A stretch of 16,159 nucleotides of DNA from a virus (Duplodnaviria; Heunggongvirae; Uroviricota; Caudoviricetes): the IMG/VR virus record IMGVR_UViG_2690316131_000017; one strand, given 5' to 3'. This document shows positions 5,450-16,159 of the stretch, piece by piece (positions within the stretch are counted from its first letter, which is position 1; the number at the start of each line of letters is the position of its first letter). A model generated the notes under the pieces. It saw nothing but the letters and a program-made list of their open reading frames with translations, searched no databases and was not told the DNA's origin. The translations under genes and the position numbers were made by a program.

Positions 5450-5784
5450 TTTTCCGCGCCCTCACGACAAAGAATTTCAAGGCGTGTCCTGGCGACATCC
5501 GGCAACGGCTGCCCGATGATATTCAGTACACGCCCCGCCAGCGGCCCCGTACTGACCTTTATCCGGCTGGTGGCGTTGATGTCCTTCCGGTACCGTATCC
5601 AGATCCTTACGGTACCAATCGCCAGCTCTGCGCCCGATGAAATGGCCTCCTTGCTGCTGATCATGTTCACGCTTGCCCAGAGTGTGTGACCGTCCTCCCA
5701 CGTTTCGAGTATTTCGCCCGTCATGGCTCTGGTCTGTTTCAGGGTCTGAATCGTTATCCTGTCACGCAGTCGCCCTATGTTCAT
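5446..5784 (-). CDS. phage head closure / head-tail adaptor protein
   Basis: Pattern RITIQ ... WASV ... IRYR ... ATSRI is typical of head-tail joining proteins. I prefer the ATG at 5784 (ATGA overlap with the portal stop) to the track start at 5826. Confidence 0.75.
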   Translation of the reverse strand: MNIGRLRDRITIQTLKQTRAMTGEILETWEDGHTLWASVNMISSKEAISSGAELAIGTVRIWIRYRKDINATSRIKVSTGPLAGRVLNIIGQPLPDVARTRLEILCREGAEK

Positions 5785-6992
5785 TCCGTTTTTTCTCCCT
5801 CGCTGATTTTTACTTCCTGTTTCCATGCCTGGCTGAACTCATCACCACCATCACGCGGTGACAGTCCTTCACGTTCGCGGGCTTCGTTCGGGCACATAAC
5901 GCCGGATTTGATGCCGCGCTCATAGGTGGCAAAGCGTTCGCCAGGTGTGGCCCGTAACAGGTCCGCGCTGTCAAACTCCACCTGATACCGGATACCAGGT
6001 ACAGGCGAGGCCACCAGCAGGGCGTTTTTTATCTGCTGCTCAAAGTTCGCCAGCCACGGGCGCATCGTCATGGTGAGAAATGCGCGGCTTGCCTCGCTGA
6101 AATTGCTGTAGGTGCTGTTGCTGTATTCCTGCAAAAAAATCGGCGAGACGTTGAACATTCGGGCGATGTCTTCAATGGTAAAGCGACGGGAGGCCAGCCA
6201 TTCAGCATCCTGATTACTCATGCCCAGCTGCTGATAGCTCATACCCCCTTCAAGGATGGGCGTTTTTCCGGCGTTTCTGGCCCCTTTGTAGCGTTCCAGT
6301 GCGGCTAATGCCTGTTTGCCCTTCACGCCGTCCAGCCATTCGCCTGACGTGATAACCCCTGCCGCCATCATGCCATCACGCATCACGCTCGCGCCGTGGC
6401 GTTGTTGGGCCAGCCCAAGCCCCAGCGATTCGCGGCAGATGGTTACAGGTGAGCGCCCCATAAAGCCGTCATCCGTGGAGTAACGAAGGTGAAGTACTTC
6501 CCACGGTAAATAGTTGTGGGTGTTTCCGGTGTAGGCGTCAGTGATGCAATAGCGCCAGTTGTGTTCTCCTGTCTGCTCCACGTTCACCGACTGCGGCGGG
6601 TAAGGATGTAAAGCCGCCGGAAAACCATCACGCCCCCACTGAATAACCGCATAAGCATTACCGTTTAACAGGCAGTGGCGGATCATCATTCGCTTAAACT
6701 AGTAGGGGGTTTGCCATGCGTTCGGGCGCTCGTTGAAGATGTGATCGACCGGATGAGAATCAAGCCACTCGCGGGCCTCCTTCCCCTTCTCATTGCGTAC
6801 CAGGTACAGGTAGCATGGCATAGTAGCCACCGCCTCAGAGATGACCGTAACGGCGTTCATGACGGCAGGCAGTGATTCCGCTGTCCCCGATGATACGTAC
6901 TCACCCGCCCCCGTGTTCGATGTGCCGGCCAGCGCCATAAATTCATCAAGCGTCATGCTGCGCTGCTCTTTTTTTCTTCTGAAAGGCCACAT
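5781..6992 (-). pseudogene. HK97-family portal protein interrupted by one in-frame TAG (codon 98, plus coordinates 6699-6701)
   Basis: Track ORFs 6699-6992 (97 aa, portal N-terminus AVMNAVTVISEAVATMPCYLY) and 5781-6689 (302 aa, portal core with FTIEDIARMFNVSP) are in the same frame, separated only by TAG and three sense codons. Combined length ~403 codons is portal-sized. Confidence 0.8.
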
Positions 6993-10188: not shown

Positions 10189-11943
10189 TTATAAAAACGC
10201 GTCACAATCATCCGTTGTAATTGCGTTGGTCTGCGTTACTCCCTTAACTTTCCGCGTAATATATTCATGTCCGTAAACTTTTGCCGCTGGCTTCATGGCC
10301 TTGCTGAACTCAGCCACGTTTAGCGGTTTGCTCCTGCCTGCGTATGCCATAAACGCCAGATAGACGCGGTAAAGGCTGTTCCTGGTCGTGTACTTCACTG
10401 AATCGCCACCGCCACCCATCATCAGGCCGCGCGCTTCCTCCAGAAAATTCAGGAACTGGCAAAACTCAATAACCGGATCCGTCTGTTGCTTTATTGCCAG
10501 TGCTTCATCACCGTCGCGCTGTTCCAGGAGTAAAGCCCGTGCCTTTTCAGGGTCGGCAAAGTTCGCCAGTAATCGGCGGATAATCACAGGGATTTCAGCC
10601 GCAATCTTTTCCGGTAGCTCCCTGTCTTTTTCGGCCTCACTGACGATATTGTCGAAACGGAAAATCACGCGACGACGTGCCACACCTCCGGCCCGTTCGG
10701 TGAATATCATCGGGTTGTTGTTGGTCGCCAGCACCACCGCCCTGATTACCGCCGTGAAACGCTTTTCATATTTCGGGTTAATTTCCACGGGGTCGCCGCC
10801 CGTGATTTTCTTGATGCCCGTTCCTTCGCCTGTATATTTCGGCTGGTCTGCCAGGACGATAAGACGACTCCCGACAACCTGCGCACGTCCACCAGCATCA
10901 TCAAGCGATGTCATCTCAGCGCTTACCGTGTTCTGTTTCCCTGCCAGAAGGCTGGCTATGTGTGTGAATGTACTTTTACCGCTCCCGCCGTCTCCGGTGG
11001 CCTCAATAAACATCTGCCAGTCGTACCGGTTCGCCATAATCATGTACAGCGCGGCACATATACGCATCATCTTGCGCGGGTCTTTTCCGGCTGCGTGCTC
11101 AAGCCATTTATGAAAGTTTGGCGCGTTGTCGCGGATATTCTCCCCTGGTGCTGGTGGCGTGTACTCAATGCCGTTATGCGTGGTGATCCAGTTCTCCGGC
11201 GTGTGCGGGGAAAATTCCCCCGTTTTCAGGTCAAGCACACCATTGGCGAACGGCAGCAAATCGCCGGACGGTTCGCCCATTGGTTCGGCAATAACTTTTA
11301 ACGCTTCCACGGTGTTATTGATTACGCGCTTGCTGAAAGTGGCCCTGTGCTCTGAATAGATCGCCACCATTTCGCGGCTCAGTGCCATTGTGCTGACCGG
11401 ACACCATACCCCGCCGCGCCATACGTGAACGATTTCACTTTCAGGATGTACGCAAACGCCATCAAAGCGCCCGGCAAGCAGCTGCGCGCGCTCACTGTCC
11501 GCCATCTGCGAAAGTTGCGCCTTTTGCTTTACCGGAAGCTCAATGACCAGACCATCAGAAAGATTCTGGCGCTCACGGGCCAGATATTCGCGCCAGTTCT
11601 CCACCTCCTGAACGTGCATTCCCTCAGGGTAAAAATTTGCATCCTGTACACCTGCCGCCGCCAGCTTCTGACCAATCGCCTTTATCATTACAGGCTCAAG
11701 ATGTCCGGCCCTGAATATGCGTACTGATTTTCGGCCTTCCGGCACAATTTGCAGCTTATCCAGTTCGGATAACTGCTGCTCCCCAAGCCACACAGGAGGC
11801 TCATTATCTCCGGCCATACGCGCGTCATGTTCCTGCCATTGTTTTGCGTGTGACCAGGCATCACTACCCGCAAAAATAATGACTTCTGTTTCTTTGTGTT
11901 TTATGCCGCGTGACTGCTGTTTTACGTTCGGTGCCAGTTTCAT
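10189..11943 (-). CDS. P4-family primase/helicase (replication initiator)
   Basis: 584 aa with a Walker A P-loop (GDGGSGKST) in a D5/P4-type helicase region preceded by a primase-like N-terminal domain. ATG at 11943 overlaps the upstream stop (ATGA). Adjacent to the iteron ori. Confidence 0.88.
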   Translation of the reverse strand: MKLAPNVKQQSRGIKHKETEVIIFAGSDAWSHAKQWQEHDARMAGDNEPPVWLGEQQLSELDKLQIVPEGRKSVRIFRAGHLEPVMIKAIGQKLAAAGVQDANFYPEGMHVQEVENWREYLARERQNLSDGLVIELPVKQKAQLSQMADSERAQLLAGRFDGVCVHPESEIVHVWRGGVWCPVSTMALSREMVAIYSEHRATFSKRVINNTVEALKVIAEPMGEPSGDLLPFANGVLDLKTGEFSPHTPENWITTHNGIEYTPPAPGENIRDNAPNFHKWLEHAAGKDPRKMMRICAALYMIMANRYDWQMFIEATGDGGSGKSTFTHIASLLAGKQNTVSAEMTSLDDAGGRAQVVGSRLIVLADQPKYTGEGTGIKKITGGDPVEINPKYEKRFTAVIRAVVLATNNNPMIFTERAGGVARRRVIFRFDNIVSEAEKDRELPEKIAAEIPVIIRRLLANFADPEKARALLLEQRDGDEALAIKQQTDPVIEFCQFLNFLEEARGLMMGGGGDSVKYTTRNSLYRVYLAFMAYAGRSKPLNVAEFSKAMKPAAKVYGHEYITRKVKGVTQTNAITTDDCDAFL

Positions 11944-12936: not shown

Positions 12937-13159
12937 GGTGTACCCCTCCGCATTTTTTTTCGTTAGAAATAAGCGTTCTTCTTTCCTGTTCATCGCTCAG
13001 GAATACGCAGACCTCACCGCTAAGGCGTTTAAGTAAGCCGATGATTGCCCCTGATTCGCTGTCGGTCATCATGCCAGGGTAATCCTCTGCCAGTGCGCAA
13101 ATGACTTCGATTTGGTGGGCGCGTTCTGCTGCCTGTTGTAGTGTGATTTCCTGGCTCAT
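12926..13159 (-). CDS. hypothetical protein (77 aa from internal ATG; track ORF to 13225)
   Basis: ATG (MSQEIT...) overlaps the stop of the upstream gene (ATGA). Coordinates follow the ORF-track frame. Confidence 0.45.
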   Translation of the reverse strand: MSQEITLQQAAERAHQIEVICALAEDYPGMMTDSESGAIIGLLKRLSGEVCVFLSDEQERRTLISNEKKCGGVHHVQ

Positions 13160-13356
13160 AAGCCTACCCCCTGACGAATACGGGCGGCGAATACCATCAC
13201 GCAGCCAGCCGGAGATTGCTGGCATGCTTCCTGTTCGCTGGTGGCCTCAATGGTAATCACGCGCGGTTGTGCCGTGCTCAGGGCGATAAAACGCCAGATG
13301 TATTTATTCAGGTTGTGCGAGTCCCGCCCTTGCGGGTGTGTGGTATGATTTCTCAT
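13156..13356 (-). CDS. hypothetical protein (66 aa), first gene of the leftward early operon
   Basis: C-terminal 66 codons of the 387-aa track ORF. ATG at 13354-13356 with a GAGGT Shine-Dalgarno, directly downstream of the operator-bearing promoter. The rest of the long ORF is judged spurious. Confidence 0.4.
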   Translation of the reverse strand: MRNHTTHPQGRDSHNLNKYIWRFIALSTAQPRVITIEATSEQEACQQSPAGCVMVFAARIRQGVGL

Positions 13357-13453
13357 AGCTACCTCGATACTTTCGCTATCGTTGGTGGTTAGACGCCCTG
13401 CATGTGTTGCGAGCACTGCGGGGCGTTGCTTAATTTGAGTGACAAAACTCAAA

Positions 13454-13540
13454 CTGTGCGCACAGATTAAAATCATGTGTGCGCACATGTCAATACTTAA
13501 CATCTCATTTTTTTTGCTGTATTGTGTGCGCCCATAAAGT
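13454..13540. promoter_or_regulatory. divergent promoter/operator switch with TGTGCGCACA palindromes
   Basis: Perfect 12-bp palindrome CTGTGCGCACAG (13454-13465), 10-bp palindrome TGTGCGCACA (13478-13487) and a half-site TGTGCGC (about 13525-13531). Leftward promoter read on the minus strand: TTGACA (13488-13493), 16-bp spacer, TTTAAT (13466-13471). Candidate rightward promoter TTGCTG / TAAAGT. Confidence 0.55.
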
Positions 13541-13561
13541 CCATTTAAGTGAGGTGCATCA

Positions 13562-13759
13562 ATGTCTAGCGGTAACACAAACAACAAATCAGCAAAGAAA
13601 AATATTCGATTCCCGCATGAGCTTATAGATGGGATTGATGCCAGCGTTGAACAAGAAAAATTAACTAATCCTAGTGCTAATTTTTCCGCATGGGTCTTAG
13701 ATGCCTGTGGACGCAAATTAAAATATGAACAGCGCCGGAAGGCCAAAGAATCAGAATAA
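13562..13759 (+). CDS. small DNA-binding-like protein (65 aa), candidate island repressor; possibly YlcI/YnfO-like
   Basis: ATG at 13562 with a GTGAGGTG Shine-Dalgarno. The segment KKNIRFPHELIDGIDASVEQE ... NFSAWVLDACGRKL has a strand-helix-helix pattern suggestive of a ribbon-helix-helix fold. The YlcI/YnfO (DUF3950) resemblance is from memory and unverified. Confidence 0.55.
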   Translation: MSSGNTNNKSAKKNIRFPHELIDGIDASVEQEKLTNPSANFSAWVLDACGRKLKYEQRRKAKESE

Positions 13760-13816
13760 TCACTATCAGCGCCGTGGTGTGAGGAACTACGGCGCATTTC
13801 TTTACAGGAGTAGACA

Positions 13817-14002
13817 ATGAACAACGAAGAATTACGGGAAATCGCATTATCCATACTTGAAAGACAGGTAGAAAAAAAATTAAGAGAAATGGATGAAATG
13901 CCTGACCATGAACAGGAAGCAAGGCCAAAAAGATTTGCCCTTGAGGATTTTCTTAAAAATTGCCCAAGAAAGATGAGATCGTGGCGTTGTTGTCCGCCCT
14001 GA
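13817..14002 (+). CDS. hypothetical protein (61 aa)
   Basis: ATG at 13817 with a GGAG Shine-Dalgarno; co-directional with the upstream gene and followed by a strong terminator. Confidence 0.5.
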   Translation: MNNEELREIALSILERQVEKKLREMDEMPDHEQEARPKRFALEDFLKNCPRKMRSWRCCPP

Positions 14003-14079
14003 TGACAGATTTGCCAACCAGCCAAAAATGTGGCATCGTTGTCGATACATAGTGTAATCAACATGTATATCATATTTTT

Positions 14080-14106
14080 GCGACCATCATAGGTCGCATT
14101 TTTTTT
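14080..14106 (+). terminator. intrinsic terminator (GCGACC-atcata-GGTCGC followed by T8)
   Basis: Perfect 6-bp GC-rich stem followed by an 8-T run; about 80 bp downstream of the plus-strand gene pair. Confidence 0.7.
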
Positions 14107-14376
14107 GCCTGTAATCCGGCAATTGTGGCGCTTCTTCACACAGTTGATATAATTCCAATGCTCATATTTATTTTTTGTGCAGCAGGTTAATCGTTCACAA
14201 AGGCGCTCAGGTAACTGGGCGCTTTTTGTTATGCCTGAAAAACCCCAATTTTGTTGTTTTTCAGTTTCACCAGGGCGAACGAATCCCCGCCTACGTTCTG
14301 GCGTATATTCAATCTTCATGGTTATAGCTCTGTGTTCAGATGATTGATGTGTGGCGGCTGCGTGCCGCCAGCGTGA

Positions 14377-14565
14377 TTAATGAACTGCCTTGCAGCTATC
14401 CTTCCAGGCCAGAACCTCGGATAAAGACCAGCCAACGGAACGACCGCCAAGTTTACGACGTGATGGGAATTGTCCGGCCTTTTCCAGGCGGTAGCGACAC
14501 GTACGGCTAAGGCCGGTTAGTTTTTCGCATTCTTTTTCACGTATAAACCGATCAGTGCTTAACAC
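14377..14565 (-). CDS. alpA: AlpA-family transcriptional regulator / excisionase-like protein
   Basis: 62 aa; the motif LTGLSRTCRYRLEKAGQFPSRRKLGGRSVGWSLSEVLAW matches the AlpA/excisionase winged-helix family. GTG start at 14565 with an AAGGGGG Shine-Dalgarno 5 nt upstream. Confidence 0.8.
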   Translation of the reverse strand: MLSTDRFIREKECEKLTGLSRTCRYRLEKAGQFPSRRKLGGRSVGWSLSEVLAWKDSCKAVH

Positions 14566-14837
14566 TATTGCCCCCTTTCGTTTCTTAAAGAGTCATCAGG
14601 TGTCTTATTGTGTCGTATTGTTCCCGCTAGAGTGATAAATGGCAAATACTGAGGATGTATGATTTACAGAAAATGAAACAGTAAGAATAAAATCTTTTAA
14701 ATTCACGTTAATACAAAGGCATAAAATATTGTTTCATGCCTTTTTTCTCGCTCTTTAAAGAGTGATTCGCTAGTGTATAAAAAACCAGTAACGCATTAAA
14801 AATCAGCCACTTATAAATCCGTACGCTTTTTCGCCTC

Positions 14838-14929: not shown

Positions 14930-16159
14930 TTATTTTCTTCTGGCTACTGGTAGCGTGGTTACGTTTTCATGTGTTCCCGCCAGTATCCCTAACCGCTCCG
15001 TCCACATATCCAGCGCATTGCGTTTAGCATCCAGATAACGGGAATGATTATAAACTCGCTGCATTCCTGGCATCTGGTGGCCTGTAAGCTGCTCCACGAC
15101 GTGAGAATCCACGCCTAAATCGTTCAGCATCGTTGTAAAGGTGCGCCGGATGTCATGTAGTGACCAGTGAGGGTGATTTAGCCTCCTGTGCGCTAATCTG
15201 CCGTACTGCGACACGCTTGTTTCCTGTTTCACTTCCCCCAGCAATAAACCCGTGTGCCTGTTCTGCTCCACCAGCTGCGTGACGAACGGCAGTATTGCTT
15301 CCGGTATGGGCCGGAATATTGCCACCTTCGTTTTGCTGTGTTCTTTCGGCACGGTCCAGAGCATTTCGGTAAAATCCCACTCGCTGATCTCCGATAACCT
15401 CAGTTCTACCGTCCGGCATCCGAACACAATCAGGAGGCGGATTAGCGCGATGTAGTAGGGGGAGAATATTTTTTTGTCCAGTGCCTGCAATAATTCGCCA
15501 AGTTCTTTGTTGCTTAAGACACGCTCGCTTATATCCGGTTTTTTCCCAACGTCCGCCACACTCATATCATCAAGAACGTTGCTGATTGCATAGCGCCGCT
15601 TCCGGCAGAACTTAAGCGCCTGCTTGCATGTCTGTAGCAGGAACCCGGCGGAAACAGGGGCTTGCTTTGCCACCCGATCAAAACAGGCCAGCCAGTGCCG
15701 TAGCTCGCATTTATCCAGCGGCATAGGGCCAATGTGCTGTATTACGTGATTATTTAGCCGCTTTTTCAGTGGGTCATAATCCACACGGTTTTCCTTTGCG
15801 TACGACTCAAGCCAGTAGGTGAGCGTATCACCAACCGTTACCGGCTTTAACGCTTCCTGTACGGTGTAATTCATCTCATGACGTGGATTTTTCCCCTCAG
15901 CCAGCCATGCGCGACACTGGGCGGCTTTTTCCCTGGCTGATTTCAGACTCAGATCAGGATAATTTCCCAGCTTAATGCGTTCCGGTGGTGCCCCCCTTCC
16001 CGTTCCGGCCCTGTAAGTGAAATACCAGGTTAAAAGGCCGCTGGTTGAATGCCTGACGCTCAGATTTCCACCGTCATTAAGAAAGGCTGTTTTTTGGGCG
16101 GGTGTGCCGTTGATTTTCCTTAGCAGTGTATCGCTCAGTTTGTTAAGTGCTCTGCTCAT
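14930..16159 (-). CDS. tyrosine integrase with N-terminal arm-binding (DUF4102-like) domain
   Basis: 409 aa. N-terminal arm-binding-type pattern (LSDTLLRKI ... LNDGGNLSV ... WYFTYR ... IKLGNYPDLSLKSAREKA) and a C-terminal catalytic region with R..HxxR..Y-type residues (HDIRRTF ... HSRY). The ATG is the last 3 nt of the window, so the upstream region and att site are not visible. Confidence 0.9.
   Translation of the reverse strand: MSRALNKLSDTLLRKINGTPAQKTAFLNDGGNLSVRHSTSGLLTWYFTYRAGTGRGAPPERIKLGNYPDLSLKSAREKAAQCRAWLAEGKNPRHEMNYTVQEALKPVTVGDTLTYWLESYAKENRVDYDPLKKRLNNHVIQHIGPMPLDKCELRHWLACFDRVAKQAPVSAGFLLQTCKQALKFCRKRRYAISNVLDDMSVADVGKKPDISERVLSNKELGELLQALDKKIFSPYYIALIRLLIVFGCRTVELRLSEISEWDFTEMLWTVPKEHSKTKVAIFRPIPEAILPFVTQLVEQNRHTGLLLGEVKQETSVSQYGRLAHRRLNHPHWSLHDIRRTFTTMLNDLGVDSHVVEQLTGHQMPGMQRVYNHSRYLDAKRNALDMWTERLGILAGTHENVTTLPVARRK

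Follow-up and report, generated by a model that had tools for sequence, protein, structure and literature searches.

A putative ribbon-helix-helix repressor and its operators at the early promoter of a capsid-forming PICI-like satellite of E. coli

The window, as we call the whole stretch of 16,159 nucleotides analyzed here, is a capsid-forming PICI-type satellite of E. coli. It carries int (14930–16159, minus strand), alpA (14377–14565, minus strand; Phage_AlpA, Pfam PF05930), for whose side the promoter scan returned a promoter-like site at 14645–14617, and, after a run of small ORFs, a D5-type primase gene (10189–11943, minus strand). Behind the primase lie the genes for the major capsid protein, prohead protease, portal, head-completion and connector proteins, HNH, TerS, and TerL, and no tail gene was found among the genes of the window. 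An integrase, AlpA, and a primase combined with the element's own capsid, protease, portal, connector, and terminase genes place the island among the capsid-forming PICIs; int, alpA, primase, capsid, portal, protease, and terminase without tail genes are likewise found in the Gram-negative PICIs and cf-PICIs EcCICFT073 and EcCIEDL933. Unlike EcCIEDL933, the island in the window and many related satellites have a divergent repressor cassette inserted between alpA, located upstream of the switch and oriented like the main operon, and the operon itself. Strain DETEC-S792 has a near-identical island within tqsA, flanked by the split halves of that gene, and the genome of a related element of 16.5 kb, vB_KppS-Ant, was deposited as that of an induced particle. 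The portal gene of the window (5781–6992, minus strand) contains an in-frame stop codon at 6699–6701, after residue 97 (NAWQTPY-stop-FKRMM), and this copy of the island may therefore be unable to build capsids.

The leftward operon is preceded by a predicted PLE-like early promoter on the minus strand. Its −35 element, TTGACA (13488–13493), reads TGTCAA on the plus strand, and a hexamer of the form TTGAC[G/A/T] occurs in 41 of the 43 distinct upstream regions of relatives. The preliminary description had correctly located this hexamer as well as TTTAAT (13466–13471, minus strand), two palindromes with centers 23 bp apart, and a third site. Its choice of TTTAAT as the −10 element, at a 16-bp spacer, was off by 2 bp, as that hexamer has no A at −11 and was for this reason passed over by the promoter scan. 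Of 41 distinct related promoters, 38 keep a TAnnnT hexamer at an 18-bp spacer, and none has one at a 16-bp spacer. The true −10 is thus more likely TAATCT (13469→13464, minus strand), a weak element (three of six positions matching) with an 18-bp spacer, from which transcription is predicted to start near 13457.

Three operator-like sites are arranged around this promoter. O2 (CTGTGCGCACAG, 13454–13465) overlaps the last 2 bp of the probable −10 and covers the predicted leftward start, and O1 (TGTGCGCACA, 13478–13487) fills the spacer's first 10 nt, immediately beside the −35. Their centers are 23.0 bp apart, a spacing of 23 bp that recurs in nearly all related cassettes. O3 (TGTGCGCcCA, 13525–13534), centered 47 bp from O1, borders on the −10 and spans the predicted +1 of the small divergent gene's own promoter. 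It had been described as a half-site about 46 bp further on; the location stands, and the site is a full one, matching at nine of ten positions and occurring as a perfect TGTGCGCACA in the orthologous loci L028, L033, and L044. The earlier view that the promoter is aimed at the main leftward operon, with palindromes in its spacer and over its start, was borne out, and the placement of O1 and O2 would fit repression.

In the 16-kb window, the exact 10-mer occurs in two copies only, and the single copy with one mismatch is O3. Copies with two mismatches number 14, compared with 10.4 ± 3.3 in shuffled sequences, which is no excess. The three sites fall within 80 bp, and there are no further such sites in the window. 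Among 2.9 million IMG/VR contigs, the 10-mer pair with its 13-nt gap was found in 20, and the small divergent gene accompanies it in all 20. Pairs with a gap of 11, 12, or 14 nt turned up in four contigs, in unrelated contexts, and were set aside. Because the 10-mer is unique to the switch in the window and the pair always stands beside the small gene in IMG/VR, chance is excluded as the origin of the palindromes, which, judged by sequence, are real operators. A scan had flagged O1 as a minus-strand terminator hairpin, a reading that we rejected because the operators of other cassettes are not palindromic.

The divergent gene (13562–13759, plus strand) encodes a 65-aa protein of the DUF3950 (YlcI/YnfO) family, predicted to be a ribbon-helix-helix repressor. 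The promoter scan assigned it a promoter at 13497–13525 (plus strand), with the −35 TTAACA (13497–13502), a 17-bp spacer, the −10 TATTGT (13520–13525), and a start expected near 13532; a TATnnT hexamer directly precedes O3 across the relatives. A terminator-like hairpin detected by scan at 13769–13795 (plus strand) follows the gene, and its sequence is identical in L002 and L008. DUF3950 profiles matched the protein above their curated cutoffs (PF13132, 28.3 bits against a cutoff of 25; NF041551, 59 bits against 30), and it also matched PHROG 949, labeled “unknown”, with E = 1.4e-27. The protein is predicted to adopt the strand-helix-helix fold of the ribbon-helix-helix (Arc/MetJ/CopG) superfamily. 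A PDB search with the family profile returned no match at E ≤ 10, no curated ribbon-helix-helix family was matched, with only sub-threshold HicB and PSK_trans_fac hits among the relatives, and homology to Mnt or Arc was not detectable at the sequence level. A sequence-database search yielded 115 homologue clusters across Enterobacterales, and an alignment of 35 of these 115 showed R16, F17, P18, F41, S42, W44, V45, and C49 to be invariant. Plausibly, Arg-16 contacts the invariant GTG/CAC ends of the operators.

The terminator behind the 65-aa gene and the lack of any family match for the downstream ORF leave no adjacent, co-transcribed toxin gene of the kind expected for a toxin-antitoxin pair. 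That downstream 61-aa ORF (13817–14002, plus strand), which had no family match, lies past the repressor terminator and is followed by a second terminator-like hairpin (14079–14098, plus strand); the ORF downstream of the repressor gene is missing from the same cassette in L011 and is a different one in L034. Beyond the satellites, we noticed an unannotated 64-aa DUF3950 homologue in phage lambda (J02459, complement 48109–48303; L090 200–394), adjoining the right cos end. It is 43% identical to the window's protein and has the same NIRFP strand and NFSAWVIEAC helix. Homologues also occur in many Stx and lambdoid phages.

For comparison, we used 54 IMG/VR loci with homologues 54–100% identical to the 65-aa protein. 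In Megablast searches, many genomes matched the window at 13166–13444 only, so that the similarity breaks off just before O2; what lies to the right of this break is an exchangeable cassette. The window's own cassette (13446–13749) was found in 69 of 5426 complete E. coli genomes, joined to differing Icd, AlpA, and replication alleles, indicating that it moves as a unit. Other cassettes at the equivalent place come with a repeated motif and a small divergent protein particular to each. The layout they share on the plus strand consists of a conserved hairpin with a T-run, O2, about 10 nt, O1, (C/T)GTCAA, about 35 T-rich nt, TATnnT, O3, a ribosome-binding site, and ATG, and the three-position arrangement is present in 41 of 43 distinct loci. 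A blastn search of a phage collection with the switch DNA gave no match; a tblastn search of the same collection with Icd returned a single satellite-like record and did not match P4, and a scan of the genome collection with Icd found five loci.

Several loci depart from this layout. Upstream of position 2501 in the IMG/VR locus L023, one 23-bp operator unit is duplicated, giving three tandem sites; upstream of position 2501 in L027 (IMG/VR), one such unit is deleted, leaving one fused site and no −10. EDL933 (L004), the source of the prototype cf-PICI EcCIEDL933, is without the divergent repressor gene and has a 247-aa same-strand hypothetical gene there instead, although a related near-palindrome, AAGGTGACCACCTAAC (1961–1976), is found at the equivalent place after the conserved hairpin. 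Because the palindrome-like site is kept without the repressor gene, a different binder is possible in EcCIEDL933.

To which protein the sites belong is suggested by how they vary. The exact TGTGCGCACA recurs at −107 and −84 from the ATG in L028, L033, L042, and L044, whose proteins are 67–79% identical to that of the window. It recurs also at −37 in L028, L033, and L044 (70–79% identical), with one mismatch at that position in L042 (67%). In these four loci, the N-terminal arm of the protein is SSGNTNNKSAKKN or a near variant, and the sequence between and flanking the sites has diverged while the sites have remained unchanged, in the manner of a footprint. Elsewhere, arm and operator core change together: xKKN/Y arms go with the core GTGCGCAC, AKKH with GTGCACCCAC, xYKG with GTGTTTAAAC, ATKG with GTGTTGGGGCAC, and ATKK with GTGCGGCCACAC. 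The protein of L030 is 81% identical overall, yet its arm is of the AKKH type and goes with the operator GTGCACCCAC. Natural swaps are seen among L052, L056, L057, and L060, in which the body of the protein is almost identical and both arms and operators differ. Partial Mantel tests on 41 distinct cassettes gave r = 0.537 (p ≤ 1e-4) for the operator against the first 14 residues and r = 0.025 (p = 0.35) for the operator against the remaining protein.

The same operators, moreover, stand beside three AlpA/HTH alleles (WP_000953271, WP_001580986, and WP_001075375). As the operator core tracks the arm and the operators occur with all three alleles, the 65-aa protein is the best candidate for their binder, and a likely one on these comparative grounds. 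Linkage of operator and gene means that part of the covariation reflects shared descent; the contrast between arm and body argues against shared descent explaining all of it. Operators of 10–13 bp, a spacing of 23 bp, and a core covarying with the N-terminal arm and strand lend indirect support to a dimer that would place a two-stranded sheet in the major groove.

On the other side of the operators, the icd-like gene (13156–13356, minus strand; NF033153; 66 aa plus stop) is the first translated gene of the leftward operon and has its ribosome-binding site, GAGG, at 13362–13365. Its relatives are annotated at 65–68 aa, with a ribosome-binding site of their own. For this length of the relatives, we rejected the 115-aa Icd start that PGAP called in DETEC-S792 (L001 14157–14504), which runs through the operators.

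Opposite the icd start, we identified a candidate antisense small RNA of about 80 nt (13341–13436, plus strand), which would cover the icd ribosome-binding site and start codon. Its putative extended −10, TGgTATGAT (13341–13349, plus strand), reads TATAAT in DETEC-S792 and places the predicted start near 13356, at about the icd start codon. A first stem-loop (13365–13381, plus strand) adjoins the anti-Shine-Dalgarno sequence CCUC (13362–13365), and the RNA also has a single-stranded, highly conserved linker, UUG(G)UGGUUAGA; the conserved hairpin forms the terminator stem (13392–13427, plus strand), with a T-run to 13436. On the plus strand the consensus folds with an energy of −25 to −27 kcal/mol, versus −6.4 on the minus strand, and 13 of the 23 pairs show compensatory changes. 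Among 34 distinct variants, the non-Watson-Crick pairs are nearly all G·U when read on the plus strand; on the icd strand they would be A·C and never G·U. These data suggest that the conserved RNA structure belongs to the plus strand, antisense to icd, and represents the predicted small RNA. Rfam scans of the whole window and of 13150–13560 found no C4, isrK, or other family, with matches at chance level only, and within this 411-nt region C4 and isrK gave no match even at E ≤ 10. A sense-strand immunity RNA of the P4 CI/C4 type with a seqA target was not found either, the conserved RNA structure being on the opposite strand.

The reading frame of icd continues far upstream. An eta-like open frame of 387 aa (13156–14319, minus strand), in frame with icd, crosses the operators and both promoters and runs antisense to the repressor gene. 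It is open back to the alpA stop codon (14377–14379) and is also antisense to the 61-aa ORF. Of 38 distinct loci, 32 have no stop in the icd-phase frame where it crosses the regulatory region, and 34 have none where it runs antisense to the repressor gene; the remaining two frames contain 201–249 and 143–148 stops in total. L023 and L027 are among the exceptions, the gain or loss of one 23-bp operator unit shifting and breaking the frame.

Over its 157–480 codons upstream of the icd ATG, the translated sequence is junk-like and non-homologous between loci and has no family match, with PHROG 6196 reaching 26 residues upstream of that ATG. Only in the window and the identical L020 is the long frame in the frame of alpA; elsewhere it is coupled to a different upstream gene, and in L034 and vB_KppS-Ant its start overlaps the upstream gene's stop. 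In the vB_KppS-Ant record (L091 6997–7971), the long frame is annotated as a gene, and the repressor gene on the opposite strand was missed. As in P4, a long frame beginning upstream of the internal promoter thus contains a short first gene nested at its end. Both the antisense RNA layer and this eta-like frame were missing from the preliminary description.

Taken together, we consider it likely that the locus serves a capsid-forming PICI-like satellite as its immunity switch, in which a DUF3950 ribbon-helix-helix repressor shuts the leftward operon and its own promoter. AlpA, the established master regulator of Gram-negative PICIs, which activates downstream genes (PMC6092414), would be an obvious other candidate for the palindromes, and EDL933 does keep a related palindrome without the small gene. 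Against this stand the recurrence of the same operators beside different AlpA/HTH alleles, the match of operator cores to the N-terminal arm of the small protein, and the fact that in IMG/VR the exact pair never occurs without the small gene; binding by AlpA or another of the island's helix-turn-helix regulators, with the divergent protein unrelated, is in our view very unlikely. The small protein could be antitoxin-like or purely self-regulating, its sites governing no promoter but its own and leaving the leftward promoter constitutive like P4 PLE and immunity to RNA and termination alone. We regard this as unlikely, since the gene has no conserved partner, ends at a terminator, and has a neighboring ORF that is absent or different in other copies of the cassette; O1 and O2, furthermore, are 47–70 bp away from the promoter of the protein itself and coincide exactly with the spacer and the +1 of the conserved divergent promoter.

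It would be highly improbable for the palindromes to be merely coding sequence, whether of the 115-aa Icd-like call or of the 387-aa ORF, without a function at the DNA level. The annotated 115-aa protein does pass through them in a near-identical strain, the frame is truly kept open over the region, and PHROG 6196 extends beyond the icd ATG. Icd elsewhere, however, is a protein of the shorter length with its own translation signals, and the upstream translation has the junk-like character described above. The repeats, for their part, are fixed in position and vary in sequence by cassette, following the divergent protein, which is a non-coding pattern. A translated frame and operators are, moreover, able to coexist.

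With the DUF3950 protein as the repressor, the switch could operate as follows. The protein would read GTG-N(2–6)-CAC sites, with the N-terminal arm and strand (residues ~2–16) setting specificity. Dimers sitting on O1 within the spacer and on O2 across the end of the −10 and the +1 would keep RNA polymerase off the early leftward promoter, from which icd, the small ORFs, and the primase and head genes are expected to be transcribed. Repressor at O3, on its own −10 and +1, would limit its own synthesis. On transcripts escaping the early promoter, the ~80-nt antisense RNA would block icd translation. Coupling of the long frame to alpA or another upstream gene would allow transcripts started upstream to be translated across the switch; by analogy with P4 eta, such a translated frame may escape termination and run antisense through the repressor gene. 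The proposal in the preliminary description of a repressor that shuts the main operon and autoregulates is thus retained in part, for the 65-aa product as the probable binder, for O1 and O2 on the leftward promoter, and for O3 on the protein's own promoter, and is amended in its −10 hexamer.

The P22 immI region contains the ribbon-helix-helix repressors Mnt and Arc, the promoters Pant and Pmnt, and the sar RNA. As in immI, a small ribbon-helix-helix repressor would here be divergent from the promoter that it blocks, through an operator overlapping that promoter, and a short antisense RNA would target ribosome binding at one gene of the operon under repression. Unlike in immI, where two repressors control an antirepressor gene, the present switch has one protein and three sites, and a whole replication and head operon would be under control. 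In P4, whose immunity involves PLE, the nested kil/eta, CI RNA, and PLL, kil is the end of eta, which starts upstream of the constitutive PLE and is coupled to an alpA/vis homologue, and the translation of eta allows late or upstream transcription to read through (PMC10111431). The short first gene of the window, icd-like and of about 65 aa, likewise ends a long frame starting upstream of an internal early promoter. P4 has a constitutive PLE and a sense-strand CI RNA, whereas here a protein repressor gene lies antisense within the long frame and the small RNA is on the antisense strand. The logic thus resembles P22 immI combined with the nested-gene device of P4, with different players, namely a DUF3950 repressor and no C4/CI RNA. 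The arrangement also recalls Stl-Str of SaPIs and Gram-positive PICIs, in which the satellite's master repressor is divergent from the replication and packaging operon (PMC6092414). Stl, however, is a larger helix-turn-helix protein relieved by helper proteins (PMC6092414) and shows no homology to the 65-aa protein, and here AlpA is present as well.

For Gram-negative PICIs, induction has been placed at helper-activated alpA (PMC6092414; bioRxiv 10.1101/2022.09.08.507074), with AlpA reported as an activator and the existence of a repressor called unclear (PMC6092414); the preliminary description had placed helper-phage de-repression at the switch, which gained no support here. The cf-PICI paper (bioRxiv 10.1101/2022.09.08.507074) makes no mention of a repressor, and in the literature on DUF3950/YlcI, on ribbon-helix-helix proteins in PICIs, and on PICI de-repression, we found no prior description of such a switch. 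More speculatively, the satellites might have a three-layer toggle. Arm-specific ribbon-helix-helix repressors would hold the early promoter shut, and the new antisense RNA would block the first gene. Induction would come from AlpA-driven transcription; translated in the junk-like frame that is kept open, it would pass over the operators and run opposite to the repressor gene, avoiding termination and shutting off the repressor through collision. The DUF3950 paralogue that lambdoid helpers have next to cos (lambda 48109–48303) might titrate the repressor through mixed dimers and so provide the helper signal. We offer this extended scheme as a tentative and rather doubtful possibility.

The window and more than 50 related loci across Enterobacterales show that dedicated repressor-operator cassettes are present in many of these satellites. 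If the proposed switch is correct, DUF3950 (YlcI/YnfO), a family also represented in phage lambda and in the cryptic prophages of K-12, would gain a testable function, and the natural arm/operator pairs would constitute a ready set of orthogonal small repressors. The combination of such a repressor, an antisense RNA, and a translated frame like that of P4 would then open the silencing and the activation of satellites to concrete experiments.
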